A stretch of 64,000 nt of DNA from the NCBI GenBank assembly GCA_963825525.1, contig CAWGTN010000002.1, positions 1,600,001 to 1,664,000 of the forward strand, written 5' to 3'. This DNA comes from an uncultured Chloroflexia bacterium (GTDB lineage Bacteria > Chloroflexota > Limnocylindria > QHBO01). Position numbers and translations under genes: made by a program. This document shows, in pieces, positions 1-57,299 of the stretch. The notes beneath the pieces were generated by a model, which had not been told where the DNA came from, ran no database searches, and was given only the letters and a program-made list of their open reading frames with translations. Every line of letters starts with the position of its first letter. Position 1 is the stretch's first letter.

Positions 1-204
1 GACGATGCCGCGCACCAGGTCGTACATGGCCCCGTAGTCGGTCGTCGCAGCCACGTCGTCCCGGACGGCACCGGGTTCGAGGTCCGCGTGCAGGACGAGA
101 TCGACCTCGAACGGCTGGGCGGTCGTCCGCTCCCAGTCCAGGACACCGTGCCGCGCCTCGAAGCGCATGCCGATGAGGCTGAGGCGATCGTCGAAGGTCG
201 TCAT
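1..204 (-). CDS. folB: Dihydroneopterin aldolase (5' part; runs off the window edge)
   Basis: Hand translation from ATG at 204: MTTFDDRLSLIGMRFEARHGVLDWERTTAQPFEVDL...TTDYG matches the FolB HGV..E...Q.F.VD and DY pattern. ATGA overlap with the folP stop. Confidence 0.9.
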   Translation of the reverse strand, partial: MTTFDDRLSLIGMRFEARHGVLDWERTTAQPFEVDLVLHADLEPGAVRDDVAATTDYGAMYDLVRGIV

Positions 205-41532: not shown

Positions 41533-43506
41533 GTGATCAGCGATACCGCGATTCCACTGAGGTTCCAGACCGCCGAGGTCGGCGTGGACTGGCTTCAGTG
41601 CAACATCGAGTGCCAGGAAGGCTGCCCGGTCAACACGAACTGCCGGGGCTACCTGATGCTGGCCGCCGAGGGCCGGTTCGAGGAGGGCTACATCCTGGCC
41701 CGCGACCCGAACCCGGTTGCGGCGATCTGCGGCTACGTATGCTCCGCCCCGTGCGAGAAGGCATGCCGCCGAGCCGATATCGACAAGCCCCTCGCCATTC
41801 GCGCCATGAAGCGCTTCCTGGTGGATTGGCACTACGGCAACAACATGCCTGACAACGTCGTGGTCCAGGCACCGACGGGGCGCAATGTCGCCGTCATCGG
41901 TGCGGGACCGGCCGGGCTGGCCGCGGCCAAGGAGCTGGGCAGCTGGGGCCACGAGGTTCACGTGTACGACGCGCTCCCGTCTGGTGGGGGCACGACCCTC
42001 ATCGGCGTTCCCGCCTTCCGGCTGCCGCGCGACGTGATCGAGCTCGACGTCAACTGGGTGGCGAAGCATGGCGTGCAGTTCCACTACAACGTGGAGATCG
42101 GCCGTGACATCACCCTCGAGCAGCTGAAGGAGCGCCACGACGCCGTCGTTGTCGCCACCGGCTGCATGTTCCCGGTGGCGATGAACACGCCGGGCGAGGA
42201 GCTGGACGGCGTCATCTACGGGGTCGACTTCCTGAAGCGTGCCAACCTCGGCCAGCCGCAGTGGGTCGGGGAGCACGTCGTCATCATCGGCGGCGGATAC
42301 ACCGCCATGGACTCGTCGCGGACGGCCCTGCGGCTGGGTGCCAAGACGAGCACCATCGTCTATCGGCGTGGCCCGGACGAGATGGTGGTCGACGAGGAGG
42401 AGCAGCACGAGACCCGTTTCGAGGGCGTGCAGTTCGAGTACTTCAGCTCACCGGTCGAAGTCTTGGCCGGTCCGGACGGCAAGGTCAACGGCATGAAGTT
42501 CGTCCGCACCCGGCTCGGGCCGCCGGATGCCACCGGTCGTCGCAGCGCCGAGCCGATCCCGGGCAGCGAGTTCACGATCGCGTGCGACATGGTCATCCCC
42601 TGCACCAGCCAGGCATCGGACAACAACGTGCTCGGCGAGTTCGGCGCCAAGCTCAACCGGCACGTGGGCGTGACCGATACGCGCACCGTGGTCGACGGCG
42701 GCTCGCTTTCATCCTGGCGCACCGCCCCGCTCAACGGCACCACGCCGAAGGATGCGAACGGCAACTCGCTCAACGACCTGGAATTCGAGTTCAACCGCGG
42801 CAACGTCGTGATCAACGCCGATACCTTCGGCACCAACGTCGACGGTGTCTTCGCGGTCGGCGACTTCGTCACCGGTCCGGCAACCATCATCGAGGCGGCT
42901 GGCCTCGGCCGACGAGCCGCGCGCTCCGTCGATCGCTGGCTGGCGGGCGTCCGTGGCGAGGAGCTCGAGGAGCTGCCGGTCATCAACCGCGCGGTGATCA
43001 CCCAGAGCCTCGAGCACGACATGCCGCGCTTCTACGAGGGCACGCCGCGCCAGGAGATCCCGATGGCACCGCCGGAGCTGCGCCGCGACTTCACGAGCCT
43101 GGTCGAGGTCGGCTACGACACCCGCAGTGCGATCGACGAGGGGACGCGTTGCCTGCAGTGCAACCACAACATCAACATCGACGGTCCGCGCTGTATCCTG
43201 TGCGGGCTCTGCGCCGATGTCTGCCCCGAGGGCGTGATCTACATGATCGACAAGGCGCAGGTCGGCGGCGACGATCCGGAGCAGGGCTTCTTCCAGTCGT
43301 GGCCGCGCGGCATCGCCATGATCATCGACGAGGAGCGCTGCATTCGATGCAACCTGTGCGTGGAGCGCTGCCCGACCAACTGCATCACCATGGACCGGCT
43401 CGAGCTCGAGCGGTTCACGCCTGACGGGAAGGTTCTGTTGGAGAGCTACAAGGACAACGTGCTCGGACAGGTCGGCCAGCAGGCCGGGATGCCGGTGGAC
43501 CGATGA
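41533..43506 (+). CDS. NAD(P)H:FAD/Fe-S oxidoreductase (GltD/NfnB/DsrL-like) with a C-terminal 2[4Fe-4S] ferredoxin domain
   Basis: Fe-S motifs CQEGCP and [13 protein letters not shown]; GAGPAG (FAD); GVPAFRLP; GGGYTAMD plus YRR (NADP preference); RCLQC; [12 protein letters not shown] and [12 protein letters not shown]. Confidence 0.92.
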
Positions 43507-44222
43507 ACGCCGTGATGCGCTTCATCAAGGAGTCCGCGCTGTGGCGCAGCCTCTTCCGTCAGCCGTATCCCAACACCAGCCGCACCCGCGCCCTGGCGGT
43601 GATGAACAACGTGTTCCTGCACCTCCACCCGGTGCGCGTGAAGCGCCATGCCGTCCGCTACACATACACGTTCTGCCTCGGCGGGATCAGCTTCTTCCTG
43701 TTCCTGGCGCTCACCGTGACCGGCCTGTACCTGATGTTCTTCTACGTGCCGTCGGTCAGCCGTGCCTACCAGGACATCCAGGCCATCGAGGCGTCGGTCG
43801 CGTTCGGCACCCTGGTTCGCAACATGCACCGCTGGGCGGCGCACCTCATGGTGCTCACCGTCTTCCTGCACATGATCCGCGTCTTCTACCACGGTGCCTA
43901 CAAGCCGCCGCGCGAGTTCAACTGGGTGGTCGGCGTGATCCTGCTCTTCCTGACCCTGATGCTCAGCTTCACCGGCTACCTGCTGCCGTGGGACCAGATC
44001 GCCTTCTGGGCCATCACCGTCGGCACCCAGATGGCGCTCTACGCGCCGCTCCTGGGACAGGAGTCGAGCTTCTTCCTGCTCGGCGGCATCCAGGTCGGCC
44101 AGGAGACGCTGCTCCGCTTCTACGTCCTTCACGTGATCGCATTCCCGCTGATCGCCGCCATCTTCATGATCGTCCACTTCTGGAGGATCCGGAAGGACGG
44201 CGGCATCTCGGGTCCGGTGTAG
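43503..44222 (+). CDS. Cytochrome b6-type N-terminal subunit of a Rieske/cyt b complex
   Basis: YTFCLGG (heme ci Cys); HRW...H and H-x14-H heme ligands; GYLLPWDQ; ends ISGPV. Confidence 0.95.
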
Positions 44223-44238
44223 GGTTAGGGATGAACCG

Positions 44239-44856
44239 ATGACGATCGAGAAACGGCCGAACGCGACGGCCGACAAGAACGCCCCGACGCAGGCGCCGGA
44301 GCGGGCGCCCATCGTCTCGCCGGGCAGCGGTCCGAAGCTGCCGGGGCCGCCCGGCGTGCCCGGGACGGAGCGATTCCGCCTGCTCGCCTACGTCAAGCAG
44401 GAGTCGATGGTCCGCGTCGACAAGCGTCCGGACGAGACGCTGCTGACCTGGCCGCACCTGCTGCGCGCCGAGTTCCTGATGTCGATGCTCATCAGCGGAC
44501 TGCTGGTGGTGACGTCGCTCTGGATCCAGGCGCCGCTCGAGGAGATGGCGAACCCGGCGGTCACGCCGCACGTCGCCAAGGCGCCGTGGTACTTCCTGGG
44601 CCTGCAGGAGATCCTGAGCTACTTCAACGCCACCGTCGCCGGCGTGATCGTGCCGACCTTCTATCTGCTGGGGTTGGCAGCCATCCCGTTCATCGACCGC
44701 ACACCGTTCAAGGCGGCCCGGGACCGCAAGCTGATGTGGGTCTTCTTCCTGTGCCTCATGCTCGGCGGGCTGCTCGTCACGTTCATCGGCTCATTCTTCC
44801 GTGGCCCGGGATGGAACTGGGTCTGGCCGTGGGAGGGGCTCTTCTTCAACCTATGA
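44239..44856 (+). CDS. Subunit IV-like C-terminal cytochrome b subunit
   Basis: TWPHLL, APLEEMANP.VTP, KAPWYFLGLQE (PEWY-equivalent) and PFIDR. Confidence 0.9.
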   Translation: MTIEKRPNATADKNAPTQAPERAPIVSPGSGPKLPGPPGVPGTERFRLLAYVKQESMVRVDKRPDETLLTWPHLLRAEFLMSMLISGLLVVTSLWIQAPLEEMANPAVTPHVAKAPWYFLGLQEILSYFNATVAGVIVPTFYLLGLAAIPFIDRTPFKAARDRKLMWVFFLCLMLGGLLVTFIGSFFRGPGWNWVWPWEGLFFNL

Positions 44857-45509
44857 CACAGCACGCTTCGTACGGCGAGGTCCACGGGCCTCGCGCGGGT
44901 GAGATCAGCCGTCGCGGATTCATGCGCCGCATGCTCGGCGTGGGCGTCGGGATCCTGTCCCTCGAGTTCCTGGGCGGGACCCTCGCCTTCCTGTGGCCGA
45001 ATCTGACCGAGGGCCTGGGCGCCAAGATCACGATCGGCGGCGTGGCAGAGATCAACAATGCCCAGCCCGAGTGGAAGAACGGCCTGCCGTACATCTACGG
45101 GCCGGCCAACCTCTTCATCGTGAACGTTCCGGCCGCCAAGGCACGGGTTGAGGGTGATGGCTCCGTCGCCTCCCCCGTCGAGGACCCCGGCACGGATCTC
45201 TCCGAGGACCTTCCCACAGCCGATCGCTCGGTCCTGGCCCTGTGGCGCAAGTGCCCGCACCTGGGTTGCCAGGTGCCGCAGCTGTGCGACCAGAGCGAGT
45301 GGTTCGAATGCCTGTGCCATGGATCGAAGTACACGGTGCTCGGCGAGAAGCGCGACGGACCCGCTCCGCGCGGGATGGATCGCTTCCCCGTGTCGGCTGC
45401 GGACGGCGCGTACGTGGTGGACACCAGCCAGGTCATCAGCGGGCCTCCGCCTGGAACGGTGACCTTCGATCAGCGCGGACCGACCGACATGCCGCACTGC
45501 ACGGGCTGA
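44853..45509 (+). CDS. Rieske [2Fe-2S] subunit
   Basis: Tat motif SRRGFM followed by a TM helix; boxes CPHLGC and CLCHGSKY; GPAPRGM. ATGA overlap with subunit IV. Confidence 0.93.
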   Translation: MTQHASYGEVHGPRAGEISRRGFMRRMLGVGVGILSLEFLGGTLAFLWPNLTEGLGAKITIGGVAEINNAQPEWKNGLPYIYGPANLFIVNVPAAKARVEGDGSVASPVEDPGTDLSEDLPTADRSVLALWRKCPHLGCQVPQLCDQSEWFECLCHGSKYTVLGEKRDGPAPRGMDRFPVSAADGAYVVDTSQVISGPPPGTVTFDQRGPTDMPHCTG

Positions 45510-45512
45510 CCG

Positions 45513-46319
45513 ATGCTGCTGAAGACGCTCGGCGTCATCCTGGTGACGGCCCTCTCCGCATTCACCCTCCTCTACTGGGTGACCGACAACCCCCGGCGCG
45601 ACGAGATCGCGACGGCTCATGACGACGAGCTCCTCGAATACGGCGAGATCATCTTCAGTGCCGATCCGGCCGAGCCGGCCGCTGCCGGATGCGCCAACTG
45701 CCACGGACCCGAGGGCTTCGGCGGGGAGGAGGGGGCGCCCGCAATCGGACCGAGCCTGCACACGCGGAGTCTCGCCGACAAGCTGAAGGTGAACGGCAAC
45801 TACGTCCACCTGGCGGTGAGCTACGGCGGCGTCGTAGTCTCCGGCAACGTCAACTCGGCGATGCCCGCGTGGAGCGCGGAGGTCGGCGGCCCGCTGAATG
45901 TGCAGCAGATCGACGCCGTCTCGGCGCTCGTCCAGTCATGGGCCGCCGAAGCCGACGAGCAGCCGATCGAGGACGTCCCGAACACGGAGGAGGCCGGCGC
46001 CGAGGTCTACACCGCCGCCGGCTGCGTCGCGTGCCACGGGGCCGATCTGGCGGGCGGGACGGCCGGGCCGAACATCCAGGGCATAGGCTCGGCGGTCATC
46101 ACCGAGTTCGAGAACTTCCCGACACCCTCGGGTGCCGACCAGATGGTTGCGGATTACGACGAGGACCCGAGGATGTTCCTCGAGAAGTGGATCAGGGACT
46201 CGTCGGCGAACTACAACGACGGCCAGGCGACCGGCATGCCTCCGCATTCCGAGGGCGCCGTCAGCGAGAGCGCGCTGCAGGCGCTCATCACCTTCCTCCT
46301 GGCCCAGACAGGTGGGTAG
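45513..46319 (+). CDS. Membrane-anchored diheme c-type cytochrome
   Basis: N-terminal TM helix; CANCH...MPAW and CVACH...MPP. Confidence 0.92.
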   Translation: MLLKTLGVILVTALSAFTLLYWVTDNPRRDEIATAHDDELLEYGEIIFSADPAEPAAAGCANCHGPEGFGGEEGAPAIGPSLHTRSLADKLKVNGNYVHLAVSYGGVVVSGNVNSAMPAWSAEVGGPLNVQQIDAVSALVQSWAAEADEQPIEDVPNTEEAGAEVYTAAGCVACHGADLAGGTAGPNIQGIGSAVITEFENFPTPSGADQMVADYDEDPRMFLEKWIRDSSANYNDGQATGMPPHSEGAVSESALQALITFLLAQTGG

Positions 46320-46328
46320 GAGGATCGC

Positions 46329-46910
46329 ATGACCACGACGACCGGCTACCGACCGCGGGGCGGCGTGAATCGCCTGCTTGGCTGGGCCGACGACTTCACC
46401 AGCTGGTTCCTCCATGGCCACGAGACATGGCTCGTGGCGGTGCTCAAGGGCGTTCCGCTCTTCCTGTTCGTCTACTTCCTGCTCACCTACGTGCCGAACT
46501 ACGTCTACTACCTGACGACCGTCGAGCTTCCGTTCCTGCGCTTCAGCGACGACGTGGGCTTCCTCATCGCAAATGGCGTGGCGGGCGGCAACTTCGCCCT
46601 GCTGATCCTGCTGGCGGTGGGCGTCCAGGCCTCTCGCGGCAGGCGCGGCTTCGGGTGGGCGTTCATTCGAATCTTCGTGTTCCTCAACTACCTGATGACC
46701 GTGCTCCTGCTCGTGCCGCTGCTGGCGTTCAACCTGGCCGGCGGCTCGTTCTGGCCGGTCACCATCACGCTCCAGTCGGTCGCCTTCGGCATGATGGTGG
46801 CGGGGCTCGGGGCGGCCTCGTGCGTCTACCTCCTCTTCGAGTACCGCCGCATCAACCGACGCGACGCCGAGCTGGCGACCCGGCACAGCGCGGAGCTCGC
46901 GCGGCGCTGA
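46329..46910 (+). CDS. Uncharacterised four-TM protein in the Rieske/cyt b operon
   Basis: AGGAGG RBS, starting 9 nt after the cyt c stop; 193 aa, hydrophobic. Confidence 0.75.
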   Translation: MTTTTGYRPRGGVNRLLGWADDFTSWFLHGHETWLVAVLKGVPLFLFVYFLLTYVPNYVYYLTTVELPFLRFSDDVGFLIANGVAGGNFALLILLAVGVQASRGRRGFGWAFIRIFVFLNYLMTVLLLVPLLAFNLAGGSFWPVTITLQSVAFGMMVAGLGAASCVYLLFEYRRINRRDAELATRHSAELARR

Positions 46911-51350: not shown

Positions 51351-52342
51351 GCGATCGTCCCCGCGTCCTCGTCACCCGCCTCATCCCCGAAGCCGGCCTC
51401 GATCCGGTCCGCGAGGCGTGCGAGGTCGATCTCTGGGAGGACGAGCTTCCTCCGCCGCGTGACGAGCTTCTTCGTCGGGTGGCCGGCGTGGACGGCCTCC
51501 TCTCGCTCCTGACCGACCGCGTGGATGACGAGCTTCTCGACGCGGCGGGTCCGCAGCTTCGCGTCGTGAGCAACTTCGCCGTTGGATTCGACAACATCGA
51601 TGTACCGGCGCTGACCCGCCGGGGGATTCCCGCCGGCAACACTCCCGGCGTCCTGACCGAGACCACCGCCGACCTCGCCTTCACCCTGCTCATGGCGGCG
51701 GCGCGGCGCATTCCCGAGTCGGTCGACTACGTCCGGGACGGCCACTGGAAGACCTGGGGGCCCATGCTCCTCATGGGCGTGGACATCCACGGCGCCACGC
51801 TCGGCATCGTTGGGTTCGGACGCATCGGCCGCGAGATGGCTCGACGTGGACGTGGATTCGGCATGCGCATCCTGTACCACGATGTCCACCCCGCCACCCC
51901 GGAGGAAGAGGCGGAACTCGGCGCCACGCGCGTCGACATGGACCGCCTGCTCGCCGAGTCTGACTTCATCAGCCTTCACGTGAACCTGACGGACGAGACG
52001 CATCACCTGATCGACGCCGATGCGCTGCGCGCCATGAAACGGACCGCGGTGCTCGTCAACACGTCTCGGGGCCCGGTCGTGGATCCGGCGGCGCTCGAGT
52101 CCGCCCTGCGCGATGGCGAGGTCTTCGCTGCCGGCCTGGACGTGACGGAGCCGGAGCCACTCCCCGCCGATCACCCGCTGGTGGCCCTGCCGAACTGCGT
52201 GGTCGTGCCGCACATCGCGTCGGCATCGCGAGTGACGCGGGACCGCATGGCACAGATGGCGGCGGCCAACCTGCTGGCCGGCGTTCGTGGCGATCGGCTG
52301 CCGACGCCGGTCAACCCCGAGGTGTACGACGCGCGTGCCTGA
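51347..52342 (+). CDS. D-2-hydroxyacid dehydrogenase (glyoxylate reductase / D-glycerate dehydrogenase)
   Basis: Motifs [33 protein letters not shown] and PHIAS. Confidence 0.93.
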
Positions 52343-52562
52343 TCGGTCGTTCAAGCTGCCCGACCTCTCGCAGCCTCATCCCTACGAGCACCAGCGACCG
52401 AAGCGCCCGTCGCATCTCCCGCGCCGGCTGACCCCACCGCCGACCCGCGACGACCCGCCCGACCTCTCGTTGTTCCTGTATGCGGGGATGGTGCTGCTGA
52501 TCATCCTGGCCATCCTGGCCATCCCCTACGTGATCGGCTACCTGTTCGAGGTCGTGTTCTAA
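52335..52562 (+). CDS. Small protein with a Pro-rich N-terminus and C-terminal TM helix
   Basis: GTG start overlaps the upstream gene end; hydrophobic [26 protein letters not shown]. Confidence 0.55.
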
Positions 52563-54448
52563 CCCGACCGCGTGCGGGCCAGGGATGACGCGGTCAGCAT
52601 GCTGATCGCAAAGGCAACGGCAACCGTCACCGGCGGCACCAGCCGCCACGGCTCGAGGGCCGAGCACCCCTCGAACGTCGGGATCAGCCACGTCCCGCAG
52701 CCCGCGGACGCGACCGCAAGCAGCGCTCCGCCCACGATGGCGACCAGGGCCACGCTCGGCAGCAACTCGGCCGCCAGCGGGTGGCGCCGGAGCATGCCCG
52801 CAGCAAGCGCCAGGACGAAGGCGGCACCAACGATGGCCAGCGCGACCCCGATCGGGGGTGCATCGCCGGACACCAGGCCGCCGAGTCCGGCGACCGCCAT
52901 CGCGACAGCCGCCGTGAGCAGGACCCCTGCCGTCAGCGGACGAACCCAGGCGCGCTCGACGAGCCGGGCCCGCGGCGGCCGGGCAGGGATCGAACCCGAC
53001 TGCGGAGGATCGATCGCCGGGTCGAGCTCGTGGAGCGTGCGACCGCGATCATCGGCGGATTCGAAGCTCAGGATGGCTCGCGTGCCCGGCCCGGTGAGGC
53101 GCAGCGCCGGACGGATGCCGGTGGTGGTGGCCACGCTGCCGGGCACAGCCCGAAGCCCTGCGCGCAGCGGCTCGAGCATGATGGCGAGGTTGCTCTCCAG
53201 GGCGAGGATGGCGAGGTGGGGCCTGTCGTCGTGCACCTCGGCAACGTCACGGTGCAGGTGCCAGGCCTGTCGGGTGAGCTCCGCGCTGGAGAGCCACCCC
53301 ACGCGTGCACCGGCCGCCGACGGCGCTCGCCCGCCGCGAAGGGACGCGAAGGTGCCGGTCAGCTCGGTGTCGATCAGCTCGCCCACGACCGGCCGGCTCG
53401 ACGGAGTCACCTGCGTTCGGCGCTCCTGTCGGAAGATCGGATAGCCGATGGCAGCGCTCAGGATCAGCAGCCCGGCCAGGCCACCGAGGACGGCCGGCAC
53501 GACGTAGCTCGCCGACGGCAGGATCGGGCCGACCCCGTCGGCGAGGACCGTGGCCGTCGGGTGCCGGAGGCCGGCAAGAGCGGCCCGCATCGGCTCGGCG
53601 GCAAGGACGGTGCGCATCTTGACGGCATCGGTGGTTGTGACGCCGGCGAGCGTGATCGGCAGGGCATCGGGCGCGTGCGGTGACTCGAGCCAGGCGACCG
53701 ACGCCGGACTCGCTGCGTCCGACACGCGATAGCGCCATGCCACGCCGTCGACGCAGGCGGATCCGCCGCTGCACTCGACCTCATCCGCATCGTGAAGCGT
53801 CGCGCGGATCGTCGTCGGCTGATCGTCCCTGACGTCATCCACGCCGGCCTCGGCGTCGGCCTGCGCGGCATCGCCGACCTCGATGAGGAGTGGGAGGCCG
53901 TCGACAGTCCCGGCGGACGTCACCCGGACGGACCGTGTTCGAATGGCCTCTGCGTTGCGGGCCGAGCGAACGACCAGCGCGTCGGCGGTCGAGTCCGGGT
54001 CCCGCAGCACGTAGAACCAGCGGGTGACGCCATCGCCGCGTGTCAGCGGGACGATCGTCTGTCGCCGCCAGCCGGGCTCGACGAGGACCTCTCCGTGGAT
54101 CACCTGGTGGTCGTGCGGCTCATCGAGGACTCGGAGGTAGCGCACGTCGTCGCTCGCGTAGATGCTGTTGTCCAGGTGCGGACCCGACAGGAGTCCGCTG
54201 ACCTCGACCCACGCGTTCCTCTCCTCGGCCACCAGGTCTGCCACCGATGTGCTCAACGGCCTGGGACGTGCGGCGATGGCCTCGTTCGTGGCGATCGCGC
54301 TCGACCAGGCCAGTGCGATCAGCAGGCTCGCAACGAGGACGGCGCCCGGGACCCTGAACGGCAGAAACCCCAGGAGCCGGCCGATGATCCGATCCACCCG
54401 GTGTCCGAGGTACCCGATCATGGCCGCGACACGGAGGAGGACCGTCAT
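52559..54448 (-). CDS. Large hypothetical membrane protein
   Basis: About 630 aa: N-terminal TM, large soluble region, TM, cytoplasmic region and about 4 C-terminal TM helices. No family recognised. Confidence 0.65.
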   Translation of the reverse strand: MTVLLRVAAMIGYLGHRVDRIIGRLLGFLPFRVPGAVLVASLLIALAWSSAIATNEAIAARPRPLSTSVADLVAEERNAWVEVSGLLSGPHLDNSIYASDDVRYLRVLDEPHDHQVIHGEVLVEPGWRRQTIVPLTRGDGVTRWFYVLRDPDSTADALVVRSARNAEAIRTRSVRVTSAGTVDGLPLLIEVGDAAQADAEAGVDDVRDDQPTTIRATLHDADEVECSGGSACVDGVAWRYRVSDAASPASVAWLESPHAPDALPITLAGVTTTDAVKMRTVLAAEPMRAALAGLRHPTATVLADGVGPILPSASYVVPAVLGGLAGLLILSAAIGYPIFRQERRTQVTPSSRPVVGELIDTELTGTFASLRGGRAPSAAGARVGWLSSAELTRQAWHLHRDVAEVHDDRPHLAILALESNLAIMLEPLRAGLRAVPGSVATTTGIRPALRLTGPGTRAILSFESADDRGRTLHELDPAIDPPQSGSIPARPPRARLVERAWVRPLTAGVLLTAAVAMAVAGLGGLVSGDAPPIGVALAIVGAAFVLALAAGMLRRHPLAAELLPSVALVAIVGGALLAVASAGCGTWLIPTFEGCSALEPWRLVPPVTVAVAFAISMLTASSLARTRSG

Positions 54449-54519
54449 GCGTGGACGTCGGGCGTGCGCACGCAACTGATACCCCGCAGAGACCCGGAAC
54501 GTTCAGTCGGATCCGGGAC

Positions 54520-55326
54520 TCAGGCCTGCGCGGTCCACACCAGGACGCGGTCTCCGTCGATCCTCACCCGCGGTCGAACGAGATCCGGCAGCTCGATCGG
54601 GTAGGCGCTGGCGTCGCCTCGGTACGGCGCATCCCGCCAGGTGCCTCGTCCGTTGGCCAGCCGTCCAGCGAGGTCGAAGCTGGCGCCGTGGCACGGACAG
54701 CGCAGATCGTGCCACTCGGGGCGGTACTGCAGGGTGCAGCCCATGTGGCTGCATACCGACGACAGGGCGCGGATGTCACCTTCGTCGTTCACGACGAAGC
54801 CATCAAAGGCGGCCGTCGAGAATCGCAGCGCGTTCCCCGGGGACAGCTCGGAGACGAGCGCGACCTCCTGCCAGAACCCGTCGCCGGCGACCAGGTCGTC
54901 ATCGCCACCGAGTGTGGGACGGCGGGTGGATCGAGGCGCCAGGGCCGATCCGATGGTGCCCGCGGCCAGCCCGGCGGCGACGCCGATGCCGGCCCGCAGC
55001 AGGTTCCGACGCGAGATGCGCCACGGGGCCCACCCGGCCGGCTCCGGTGGCAGCCGGGCCGACGACGCGCGGATGGGTGGAGGAACCTGGACCGCGGTCG
55101 CCCCTTCGTCGGCGGCGCGCATCCGCAGACGCAGCTGCTCGACGAACGCGGCGTTCGGCTCGATAAGGTCGGCCGGCCCGGAGGCGGCCGCCATCTCGGC
55201 CGCCAGCCTCGCCATCTCCGCCTCGGCGGCATCGGCCACGTGCCGTGGGGACGGACGCGCGTCCTGCAGCAGCGCATCCAGGTACTCCGCGAAGTCATCG
55301 CCGCGTGGGTCCCGCTCATCAGCCAT
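54520..55326 (-). CDS. Rieske [2Fe-2S] protein with an N-terminal anti-sigma-like domain and internal Tat motif
   Basis: Helical N-terminus (FAEYLDALL...PNAAFVEQLRLRM), SRRNLL plus TM helix, and boxes CSHMGC and CPCHGASF. Overlaps the ECF stop by 8 nt. Confidence 0.88.
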   Translation of the reverse strand: MADERDPRGDDFAEYLDALLQDARPSPRHVADAAEAEMARLAAEMAAASGPADLIEPNAAFVEQLRLRMRAADEGATAVQVPPPIRASSARLPPEPAGWAPWRISRRNLLRAGIGVAAGLAAGTIGSALAPRSTRRPTLGGDDDLVAGDGFWQEVALVSELSPGNALRFSTAAFDGFVVNDEGDIRALSSVCSHMGCTLQYRPEWHDLRCPCHGASFDLAGRLANGRGTWRDAPYRGDASAYPIELPDLVRPRVRIDGDRVLVWTAQA

Positions 55327-55831
55327 CGGACGCACCCCCGACGGCGGCCGCTCGGCGGAGGGCCCGGTATTGGAGAACCTTGGCGTTGCCGTTCGTGATG
55401 CCCATGGCCGCAGCCGTCTCGGCGACCGAGAGGCGCTCCAGGAACCGCAGCTCGAGCACTCGACGATATCGGACGGGAAGGCGACTGAGGGTCTCGCGCA
55501 CCCGTGCGTTCGCATGATCGTTGGGCACCACCGGGATCGGCGAGTCCTCGACCGGCTCCCATCCGACCGCGACGTGGTCGATGCCCACGATCGGCAGCCG
55601 ATAGAAGGCGCGCCAGTGATCGGCGATCGCGTTCTGGGCGACCCGGTACAGCCATGCGGCGATCTGGCGCGGGTCGCGCGACGTGTCGAGCTGCTCCACC
55701 GCCCGAATGAACACCTGCGCCGTCAGATCCTCCGCGTCCGGACGGTTGCCGACACGCGCGTAGACGAAGCGGTAGATCCCCACCACGTGCTTGGCGTAGA
55801 CCTGTTCGAAGGGACCCGGCGCGGCTGACAT
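55319..55831 (-). CDS. ECF RNA polymerase sigma factor
   Basis: Region 2 DAEDLTAQVF...AWLYRVAQNAIADHWR; region 4 LP.RYRRVLELRFLERLSVAETA..MG...NAKVLQYRAL. Confidence 0.93.
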   Translation of the reverse strand: MSAAPGPFEQVYAKHVVGIYRFVYARVGNRPDAEDLTAQVFIRAVEQLDTSRDPRQIAAWLYRVAQNAIADHWRAFYRLPIVGIDHVAVGWEPVEDSPIPVVPNDHANARVRETLSRLPVRYRRVLELRFLERLSVAETAAAMGITNGNAKVLQYRALRRAAAVGGASDG

Positions 55832-55855
55832 CTCACCGATGCCGTACGCCGTGGG

Positions 55856-56344
55856 TTACGCCCGCGGACGCAGGGGAGCGAGCAGCGCAGCCACCTCTTC
55901 GAGGAATCGGGCGTCGTTCTCGTCGAATGCATTCCGATCGGAGGCATCGATGTCGATCTCGCCGATCACCTGCTCGCCCTCGAAGATCGGCACCACGATC
56001 TCGCTGCGGGTGCTGGCGAAGCAGGACAGGTAGCGGGGATCGGCGTCGACGTCCGGGACGATCTCGGTCATGCCGGATGCGGCAGCGGCCCCGCAGACTC
56101 CGGTCCCGATCGGGATCCGCACGTGCTCGGTGGCTTCCGGACCGGTCCACGGGCCAAGCACGAGATCCGTGCCGTCGACCCAGTAGATGCCCACCCAGTC
56201 GTAGGCCGGAAAGCGATCGTGGAGAACGTCCACGACGCGCTGCGTCGCGGCTTCCGGGCCGGCGGCCTCGGCGATCGCGGATCGCACGAGATTCACCGCG
56301 TCCCCGTGAGCGGCGAGCCGCTCTTCGGCGACCGGGTGGCTCAC
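55856..56344 (-). CDS. GAF-domain free methionine-(R)-sulfoxide reductase-like protein
   Basis: Motifs WVGIY, LVLGPW.G, GVCGAAA, VPDV...YLSC...TRSEIVVP and IDID. GTGA overlap with the HxlR stop. Confidence 0.85.
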   Translation of the reverse strand: MSHPVAEERLAAHGDAVNLVRSAIAEAAGPEAATQRVVDVLHDRFPAYDWVGIYWVDGTDLVLGPWTGPEATEHVRIPIGTGVCGAAAASGMTEIVPDVDADPRYLSCFASTRSEIVVPIFEGEQVIGEIDIDASDRNAFDENDARFLEEVAALLAPLRPRA

Positions 56345-56718
56345 CCGTGTGCCGCCCAGCGTTCCGCCCACTGATCGATGGATCTGATGGCGCCTCGGAG
56401 CTCGATACCCTTGGACGTCAGCGAGTATTCGACCCATGGCGGAATCTCACGCACGGCTCGGCGCTGGACCATGCCCTCGTCCTCCAGCAGCTTGAGACGC
56501 TGCGACAGGGTCGCCGAGTTCGCACCGCCGAGCGCGTCCTGCAGCTCGCAGAAGCGCTGCGTCCGGTCTCCCAGGGAGCGGATGATGCGCAGGACCCATT
56601 TCTGGCCGATGACGTTGAGGGCCGCCGTCGCCGCGCACTCGGCCCGCAGGGCATCGGCACGGCGAAGCGCACGCGAGCGCGGCGTGGCGGGGGGCGATGC
56701 AGGGAGTGCGGCGTCCAT
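56341..56718 (-). CDS. HxlR-family winged-helix regulator
   Basis: C...ALNVIGQKW, RFCELQ, TLSQRLKLLE and PPWVEYSLT.KG; has an N-terminal Cys. Confidence 0.92.
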   Translation of the reverse strand: MDAALPASPPATPRSRALRRADALRAECAATAALNVIGQKWVLRIIRSLGDRTQRFCELQDALGGANSATLSQRLKLLEDEGMVQRRAVREIPPWVEYSLTSKGIELRGAIRSIDQWAERWAAHG

Positions 56719-56768: not shown

Positions 56769-57200
56769 TCACTCGACGATCACCGTCATGTTCATCGACG
56801 GGTGGAAGAGGCAGGTGATCGCGTACGTCCCGGGCTCGTCGAAGGTGAATCGGGCCGTGGCGTTCCGCTCGAGCTCCTCGTTGATGATCGGGCCCGCGGT
56901 GGCCGTCCCATCCGACCCCTCAGTCACGGTGTGGGTCGCGCCGTCGGCATTGACGAAGCGCACCGTCGTGCCGGCCGGGATGGTCAGCTCTTCGGTGTCG
57001 AATGCGAAGTCCTCGAGCCGGACCGTGACCGGTTCGGCCGATGGATCGGACGCGGCCGCACTGGCCGATGGCTCGGCCACCGCCGAGGATGGTGCGGCGG
57101 AGGCGGTCGGGCTCGGCTGGCTGGCGGGCGCGGCGCCGCACGCGACGAGCACCAGCGCGAGTGTTCCGACGAGTCCGGCGAGCGGCCTGGATCGGGTCAT
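56769..57200 (-). CDS. Cupredoxin (type-1 blue copper) lipoprotein
   Basis: Lipobox LVAC, Ser/Pro/Ala linker, and copper ligands HTVT...CLFHPSM. AGGAG RBS. Confidence 0.9.
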   Translation of the reverse strand: MTRSRPLAGLVGTLALVLVACGAAPASQPSPTASAAPSSAVAEPSASAAASDPSAEPVTVRLEDFAFDTEELTIPAGTTVRFVNADGATHTVTEGSDGTATAGPIINEELERNATARFTFDEPGTYAITCLFHPSMNMTVIVE

Positions 57201-57270
57201 GGGGCGGTGGCTCCTGTCGTGCGAGGTTGACGTCGACGATCCGTACGGAGCACGTTACGCCACGCCACAT

Positions 57271-57299
57271 TTGACGCCCATCGATGCGGACCGCATAGT
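57271..57299 (+). promoter_or_regulatory. Sigma70-type promoter candidate for the ccm operon
   Basis: TTGACG, a 17-nt spacer, then CATAGT ending 35 nt before the ccmA ATG. Confidence 0.55.

Follow-up and report, generated by a model that had tools for sequence, protein, structure and literature searches.

A BldN-like sigma factor and its putative Rieske anti-sigma factor in Chloroflexota: a probable form of ECF127 with a candidate compact promoter

In a 64,000-nt stretch of an uncultured Chloroflexia genome (contig CAWGTN010000002.1, positions 1,600,001 to 1,664,000; hereafter the window), the gene for an extracytoplasmic function (ECF) sigma factor is followed directly by that for a membrane protein with a Rieske [2Fe-2S] domain. 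We consider it fairly probable that this pair is the Chloroflexota form of the ECF127 group: a BldN-like sigma that is kept at the membrane by a class III anti-sigma bearing a Rieske cluster outside the cell, and that transcribes its own gene from a compact promoter. A broader proposal, to which we give a little less than an even chance, is that ECF127 sigmas in general read a compact promoter, both boxes being contacted by one sigma whose region 4 is off the beta-flap, and are released by an anti-sigma inserted through the twin-arginine translocation (Tat) pathway that senses the cell surface; the displaced region 4 would perhaps lie in the space that region 3 fills in larger sigmas. The pairing as such has already been predicted in print, while the wider range, the predicted membrane topology, the class III-like head and the candidate short-spacer promoter are new. 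The last of these is the most unusual feature, and was absent from an earlier interpretation of the window made from its letters only (the sequence-only reading).

The sigma gene (55319..55831, minus strand) encodes 170 amino acids (aa) with the Pfam domains Sigma70_r2 and r4_2, and groups with the probable ECF127 clade described below. BldN (6dxo_A) was the best PDB match of its family profile (E 2.8e-31, against 1.3e-18 for the runner-up), and its score with the BldN family model TIGR02952 was 119.7 bits, below the curated cut-off of 206.45. The ATG of the Rieske gene (54520..55326, minus strand) overlaps the sigma stop codon by 8 nt; the product is a putative anti-sigma of 268 aa, comprising a three-helix head, a linker, a Tat signal-anchor and the Rieske domain. 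What the sequence-only reading had noted in the letters themselves, i.e. the overlap, SRRNLL, the transmembrane stretch and the boxes CSHMGC and CPCHGASF, is present as claimed.

The conserved adjacency expected by the sequence-only reading was found in all close and distant loci fetched. The sigma gene lies directly upstream in all 30 close loci (own included) with the same 8-nt overlap in 29, the exception being L028, where the sigma frame runs on. Outside the window's family it does so in 60/60 distant loci (59 by script and L122 on re-check), the genes overlapping in 40 of the 59 script-checked ones. Among metagenome loci from an actinobacterial-type alignment, 57 of 78 have the sigma upstream, and the other 21 comprise 15 at contig ends and six duplicated, rearranged or sigma-less copies. 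Judged from sequence, the two genes are translationally coupled and co-inherited, which would be the first step of the mechanism that we propose. On some mycobacteria-like contigs (L163, L167, L178 and L180) a second Rieske gene stands behind the promoter motif described below and a sigma fragment, or the sigma is on the opposite strand.

A survey of the window's class gave full-length matches in 44 of 66 other genomes of the window's family, partial ones in six more, and Rieske-domain-only matches in the other families. With a profile made from the head only, shorter relatives of the same layout were reached, and these led to proteins of Catenulispora and Streptacidiphilus. At E<=1e-25, 83 out of 301 genomes from the phylum match the family profile, and close homologues carry the names Chloroflexota or Limnocylindria in their sources. 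A pattern scan of genome contigs with the single protein returned only one unrelated locus. One unpublished genome (G120) contributes a locus to each 30-locus set (L005, L259); G084, G091, G106 and G151 enter the tallies only.

ECF127 was reportedly first described by Huang et al. 2015. It is catalogued as an actinobacterial group of BldN-like sigmas with a +1 Rieske protein as putative anti-sigma, similar to that of ECF121, and a GTAACCC −35 element; members are given as 100% Actinobacteria, and the partners as 'soluble', with Tat signals in 10-26%, and the promoters as having a 'non-conserved −10' (PMC7826278). PMC8999054, as far as its available part goes, lists no characterised member and an unknown mechanism, and our literature search found no experimental study of a Rieske anti-sigma pair. 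The novelty that the sequence-only reading had seen in the pairing is not borne out (PMC7826278): the window has the same +1 Rieske protein behind the sigma and the same upstream element (CGTAACCC at 55860-55853, minus strand). Where ECF127 was described as restricted to Actinobacteria, the 83 genomes above widen its range without excluding membership.

To place the window's pair we used a tree of 64 sigmas, in which the 50 Rieske-linked ones form one clade (support 100/99, stem 1.13) and the actinobacterial-type sigmas nest among the Chloroflexota ones (midpoint root). This clade includes the sigma of a Mycobacteroides plasmid locus (L052, NC_021278) that has the context of subgroup ECF127s1: sigma, Rieske protein, cupredoxin and metallophosphoesterase. 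The two sigmas are 41% identical and the Rieske proteins 31% over 212 residues, head included. With shared clade membership as a proxy for the group assignment, we conclude that the window's pair appears to work like ECF127 and, by this proxy, belongs there. The plasmid locus (L052:1426-7212) also encodes an MsrP-like molybdopterin oxidoreductase, and its metallophosphoesterase has a twin-arginine-like N-terminus.

The N-terminal head of the Rieske protein is predicted to be a cytoplasmic anti-sigma domain of class III (RsbN)-like type (residues 7-75; 55102..55308, minus strand; AlphaFold2 pLDDT 84), with helices at residues 7-20, 33-49 and 59-75 and a single anchor after them at ~109-130. In the AlphaFold2 model of the full protein the head and the Rieske domain are confident, and the Pro-rich linker and the anchor are of low confidence. 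The sequence-only reading had named a true start just before the twin-arginine (RR) motif as the outcome that would speak against a cytoplasmic domain; instead, the head is kept in all 102 aligned proteins with an ATG at the sigma stop, and the query has no start codon between residue 70 and the RR motif, so that the domain appears to be real coding sequence. The zinc motif HxxxCxxC was found in 0/102 heads, and there are three helices rather than four, unlike class I zinc anti-sigmas (ZAS). Fold searches with the isolated head gave nothing clear in Foldseek and a Z of at most 4.3 in VIA.

The predicted interaction between sigma and head is supported by a structural model of the complex, which scored 0.82 compared with 0.00 for the best of three controls. 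At least 91% of contacts are shared between the runs, and partner pLDDT is at least 84; the score mark, reached by 116/157 solved and 2/215 mismatched pairs, is only roughly applicable, as own alignments were used. In the model, head helix 3 (F61, L65 and M69) contacts sigma F8, Y12 and F41, mirroring the contacts of BldN F15, Y19 and F48 with RsbN alpha3 (PMC6101532, available in part), while helices 1 and 2 contact residues Y155, L158 and R159 of the sigma recognition helix. As the second step of the mechanism, helix 3 would thus very probably sit in the sigma2 groove, with helices 1-2 over the sigma4 recognition helix and blocking −35 binding. Sigma residues G28, N29, W73 and A161 are special to the Rieske-linked clade and sit in the modelled anti-sigma interface, a position for which we rejected them as the cause of the promoter geometry discussed below.

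Independent support for an anti-sigma head comes from the profile of the head family, since it also matches (E 1.1e-5) the product of a gene behind a second BldN-like sigma of the same genome, a small membrane protein without a Rieske domain. This second ECF sigma (G000:C2:720430-721011, minus strand) and the 123-aa membrane protein that follows it together span L251:2482-3512 (G000:C2:719981-721011, minus strand); the protein has a homologous three-helix head and almost no outside domain, was found in 43/50 family genomes, and looks like a minimal class III anti-sigma outside Streptomyces. Synteny in two phyla, the RsbN-like three-helix head and the score of the complex model relative to its controls all point towards the anti-sigma role put forward in the sequence-only reading.

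The head is followed by an internal twin-arginine motif, S105-RRNLL, and a moderately hydrophobic anchor (residues 105-130; 54937..55014, minus strand). The hydrophobic stretch is rich in Gly and Ala, and its best 19-residue Kyte-Doolittle mean is 1.57; internal Tat anchors of low hydrophobicity have precedent (PMC5449189, available in part). Compared with the 'soluble', partly Tat-bearing ECF127 partners, an RR pair stands beside a hydrophobic stretch in 101/102 proteins, and in the non-redundant set R106 is invariant (102/102) and R107 kept in 99/102, as expected if the internal Tat anchor of the sequence-only reading is correct. The third step, with the cluster loaded in the cytoplasm and Tat inserting the protein by way of an uncleaved internal RR anchor, so that the head stays inside and the Rieske domain faces outwards, is in our view probable. 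The genome's tatC is present in three frame pieces (G000:C2:200580-201199), probably through sequencing or assembly errors.

The Rieske domain (PF00355; 54529..54879, minus strand) has ligands C192, H194, C210 and H213 and the disulfide pair C197-C212, which favours an outside location. All four cysteines are invariant in the 102 non-redundant proteins. Ala215 and Phe217 take the places of the Ser and Tyr of cytochrome bc-type Rieske proteins, and these positions hold Ser in 1/102 and Tyr in 2/102 proteins, in line with the lowered potential of the sequence-only reading. The Rieske protein of the window's bc operon (44853-45509) differs in box 2 as that reading had stated, with CLCHGSKY compared with CPCHGASF here. 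The potential of bc1 Rieske proteins is ~+290 mV and that of menaquinone ~−75 mV. In yeast, mutants at the Ser and Tyr positions lose 130 and 65 mV, roughly additively (PMC12954380, available in part). Subtracting these losses from the bc1 value suggests a cluster potential near +100 mV, low for a bc1 protein yet still above menaquinone.

The best fold match of the domain was the Chlorobaculum Rieske 8hn2, with AioB of arsenite oxidase and PetC3 (5cxm) among the next rows, and all NCBIfam respiratory Rieske models scored far below cut-off. With that, the lack of a cytochrome b partner and the loss of the Ser/Tyr donors, the protein does not classify as a cytochrome bc/b6f Rieske. In one Chloroflexota clade (L117, L125 and L126), 3/102 proteins have Asp aligned at His213 and an altered second cluster box, which suggests a changed ligand set.

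The sigma gene is preceded by a promoter-like CGTAAC-N6-CGTA (55845..55860, minus strand), with a predicted +1 at ~55835 and the ATG at 55831; a second copy (57244..57259, minus strand) precedes the cupredoxin gene. In the window, the TAA of the first copy is the stop codon of the upstream GAF gene, and CGTAAC is kept also where it is not part of that stop codon. All 30 close loci have CGTAAC before the sigma gene, 29 of them with CGTA 6 nt on. The motif common to sigma, cupredoxin, DoxX and Lipoprotein_15 genes is YGTAAC-N6/7-CGTA, the second box reading CGTA in Chloroflexota, NCTAT in most actinobacterial-type sites and CGAC in one clade, and it precedes cupredoxin genes in all three lineage groups. 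ECF127 was described as having no conserved −10; here, a conserved second box lies 6-7 bp from YGTAAC.

In an unselected test, in which every YGTAAC within 300 nt of these four gene types was taken and the second box left free, TA stood at offset 14 or 15 in 37/39, 59/68 and 66/67 sites, while other offsets had means of 0.2-2.3. Over 100 loci, 137 motif sites were counted, compared with 35 on the reversed sequence. The spacer has changed between 6 and 7 bp seven times or more. Within 400 nt of the sigma gene the motif was found in 52/57 Chloroflexota and 27/45 metagenome loci, and some sigma genes sit behind a motif-led doxX gene. The 27 motif-led proteins that were scanned, hand-picked from 71, comprised 13 cupredoxins, seven Lipoprotein_15, two DoxX, one PAP2, one hydrolase and three without assignment. 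The window's genome has only three exact copies; the third (C2:993034) has no evident target.

Start codons help to place the boxes. In 172 motif-bearing genes, many of them close kin, in-frame ATGs begin 11 nt after the T of the second box: 48 lie at T+11..15 and two at T+2..10, compared with seven and 22 out-of-frame ATGs. This is the pattern that leaderless starts with T at −11 would give. A pyrimidine-purine step at T+10/11 is present in 63% and 86% of sites in two distant groups. In 83 of 101 sigma-promoter pairs used for a residue-base test, Asp at the RpoE-N84 position pairs with G(−12) in 57/57, and residues other than Asp/Glu with G in 6/21. The equivalents of RpoE N84, K56 and N80, which contact the −12/−11 bases (PMC7776599, available in part), rank 2, 3 and 1 of 157 columns for the −12, −12 and −11 bases.

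As a control we used the sibling BldN-like sigma, where NGTAAC-N16/17-TGTT precedes the anti-sigma gene in 30/30 loci and TA at 14/15 occurs in 0/30; in the window's genome the canonical TGTAAC-N16-TGTTAG precedes this sigma. Its nearest ATGs are at Y+33 or later, as opposed to Y+25/26 for the pair's motif, so that relative to the sibling the spacer is shorter by 9-10 bp judged from the boxes and by ~8 bp judged from start codons. The second box, 6-7 bp after YGTAAC, is thus outside the canonical ECF spacing of 15-18 bp, and the two boxes look like a typical ECF −35 and −10 with ~9-10 bp less than the normal distance between them. The simplest reader of YGTAAC would be the pair's own sigma, since its sigma4 recognition helix is conserved and BldN-like (K151 in 93/102, V152 in 96/102, Q154 and R156 in 101/102 each). 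We lean slightly towards a placement with CGTA at −13..−10 and YGTAAC at ~−26..−21, which would bring sigma4 closer than it is in canonical ECF holoenzymes, by almost a full helical turn. In length the sigma2-sigma4 linker is normal (median 43.5, compared with 45 and 42). The published promoter search for ECF127 allowed gaps of 15-18 bp, as did that in PMC7776599, and this limit would account for its 'non-conserved −10'.

Three other accounts of the boxes were rejected. A GlnR-type direct repeat (GTNAC-N6-GTNAC) does not fit, the boxes having a period of 12-13 that slips. The second box was not taken for a housekeeping TANNNT, as the T at the sixth place is not conserved, nor was a canonical −35 accepted upstream of it, there being no conserved base 5-16 nt before YGTAAC in the distant groups.

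A number of results weigh against the proposed system. The complex model may owe its pass to memory, the BldN-RsbN structure being solved; the head has no sequence match to RsbN at E<10, and in VIA it matched 6dxo_D with Z 3.7, rmsd 8.0 Å and 59 aligned residues, rank 10 among unrelated helical matches. The Ser/Tyr rule for potentials has an exception (PMC12954380), no protease or electron donor is conserved nearby, and Rieske copies lacking an intact sigma occur on some mycobacteria-like contigs. As for the promoter, GTAAC is missing within 400 nt of 5/57 Chloroflexota and 18/45 metagenome sigma genes. Genome-wide matches number three versus 11 for the reversed pattern, i.e. there is no enrichment, and since matches are as rare as in the reversed control the regulon is not definable by such counts. 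At T+11 the window's own family lacks the initiator signal (0.27). The residue-base covariation amounts to one or two independent pairs and is not significant after tree correction, and the acidic-K56 rule for −11A did not hold among the 83 pairs. Finally, sigma2 and sigma4 are anchored at fixed places on core polymerase (PMC11156646, available in part), so a 6-7 bp spacer is hard to accommodate; no such ECF spacer was found in the literature covered, from which subscription journals were largely absent.

The last two steps of the mechanism are the less certain ones. Tentatively, and with more chance of being wrong than right, we suggest as the fourth step that a cluster near +100 mV is normally reduced, and that copper or oxidants at the cell surface oxidise or damage it, so that the domain is destabilised and proteolysis frees the sigma; copper or oxidants would be the most likely signal given the cupredoxin and DoxX outputs. 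In the fifth, which the motif, start codons and residue fit make somewhat likelier than its opposite, the sigma would transcribe itself and one to three surface genes, mostly cupredoxin, from YGTAAC-N6/7-CGTA.

Alternatives exist for different steps, and are not mutually exclusive. Tat exports folded, cofactor-loaded proteins, and the pair could sense iron or Fe-S supply: only the cluster-loaded form would pass Tat, the apo form being degraded in the cytoplasm with release of the sigma, and copper damage would act likewise. Although a cupredoxin as the main target and the lack of a linked electron donor suit this, we hold it somewhat unlikely, as the loss of both Ser and Tyr throughout the family, next to a disulfide pair that never varies, suggests that the potential is tuned, and none of the 27 motif-led proteins scanned belongs to iron uptake.

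The BldN −10 is CGTTGA, and an element resembling it, CGGTGA, recurs at N16 both within the window's genus and in several sigma promoters of mycobacteria-like type. YGTAAC could hence be the −35 of a canonical promoter whose degenerate −10 lies 16-17 bp further on (CGGTGA in the window, YGGYRA at mycobacteria-like sites), CGTA/CTAT being a conserved spacer element of the kind reported for ECF118, and no new polymerase geometry would be needed. Offsets 22-27 are, however, not conserved across the phylum (top base at most 50%), the CGGTG element travels with the ATG and not with YGTAAC, and a start near Y+35 would cut off the Y+25..29 ATGs of sigma, cupredoxin and DoxX genes, all of which makes a canonical promoter unlikely. 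We judge just as unlikely that the boxes are split, with CGTA as the sigma's −10 and YGTAAC read by a second sigma molecule, the sibling BldN-like sigma or an unlinked activator. Such a division would avoid the geometric problem, and the sibling does use the same hexamer, yet the sigma4 recognition helix shows strong conservation and resembles that of BldN, none of the proteins tested is a regulator whose gene is kept nearby in the different lineages, the spacer slips as sigma spacers do, and a single query found the sibling's anti-sigma only in the window's family. Very unlikely is a Rieske protein that is no inhibitor at all but a sigma-controlled effector, either a spare respiratory Rieske or an electron carrier for the cupredoxin: the Tat anchor and disulfide are as in respiratory Rieske proteins, the nearest folds are low-potential electron-transfer Rieskes and a few Rieske copies stand behind the motif without an intact sigma, but the head is kept in all 102 proteins, modelled on the sigma and homologous to that of the Rieske-free protein behind the sibling, the genome has separate bc-type Rieske genes, and the respiratory models all fall far below cut-off.

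If true, a compact promoter read by one sigma would add a new geometry to the promoters of the sigma70 family, one overlooked by searches that fix the gap at 15-18 bp. The −35/−10 spacing in this family is taken as set by the places of regions 2 and 4 on core polymerase, and a sigma reading boxes 6-7 bp apart would need a different holoenzyme architecture. It would also show how two sigmas with the same −35 hexamer stay apart in one cell, and would make it worthwhile to re-run motif searches for other ECF groups with 'no conserved −10'. In the Rieske partner one would have the first tested anti-sigma whose outside domain holds a Rieske cluster, and class III domains would reach beyond Streptomyces.

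The consensus −35 hexamer of BldN is the same as that of the pair's motif. BldN-RsbN of Streptomyces (ECF121; PDB 6DXO/6C03; PMC6101532) contains the closest solved sigma and likewise has a three-helix head and a single membrane helix after ~100-117 residues with an outside domain; going by the complex model, the binding mode may also be alike. It differs in having a plain anchor rather than a Tat anchor and outside Rieske domain, while the window's sigma falls below the TIGR02952 cut-off, lacks an N-terminal pro-sequence, and would be self-regulated from a short spacer. Low-potential membrane Rieskes (Chlorobaculum 8HN2, AioB and Synechocystis PetC3 5CXM) share the fold, the disulfide pair and the absence of Ser after box 2, but have no 100-residue cytoplasmic head and are encoded with cytochrome b or AioA, not with a sigma. 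The shortest sigma70-family spacer that we found described is that of SigB (~14 bp), likewise with an upstream element closer than a −35, but only ~3 bp shorter and using sigma3; sigma54 (−24/−12, 4 bp) also has a closer upstream element and is unrelated (PMC11156646).

The sequence-only reading had also seen a fit in the neighbouring genes, which stood for one of them. The cupredoxin lipoprotein (56769..57200, minus strand; PF13473/PF00127; His/Cys/His/Met site), a predicted sigma target, recurs in all three groups: 14/20 family, 12/60 distant (counted over only ~4 kb on each side) and 15/25 actinobacterial-type loci. The GAF protein (55856..56344, minus strand), with GxCG and SCF..SEIVVP motifs and fRMsr/MsrC-like, is a local neighbour in 20/20 family loci and in none of the 60 distant or 25 actinobacterial-type ones. 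Much the same holds for the HxlR-type regulator assigned by Pfam (56341..56718, minus strand; 19/20, 0/60 and 1/25) and for ccmB/E/F (16-17/20, 0/60 and 0/25). The calcineurin-like phosphoesterase of subgroup s1 is in 0/20, 4/60 and 17/25 loci, respectively.

Other features of the window were noted in passing. A housekeeping-type promoter for ccmA, TTGACG-N17-CATAGT (57271-57299, plus strand), lies back to back with the cupredoxin motif. The Rieske gene is followed directly by that for a 638-aa membrane protein (52559-54475, minus strand) without a Pfam match, found in 1/20 related loci. A small Pro-rich protein with one C-terminal hydrophobic helix and no Pfam match (52287-52562, plus strand) is convergent on the Rieske gene in 20/20 family loci. 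The bc operon (41533-46910) encodes a flavoprotein with a ferredoxin tail, named GltD-like by inspection, a split cytochrome b, subunit IV, the Rieske protein, a dihaem cytochrome c and a membrane protein, i.e. a Rieske/cytochrome b complex combined with a putative NAD(P)H module. A second bc-type Rieske gene of the genome is at G000:C3:116922-117536.

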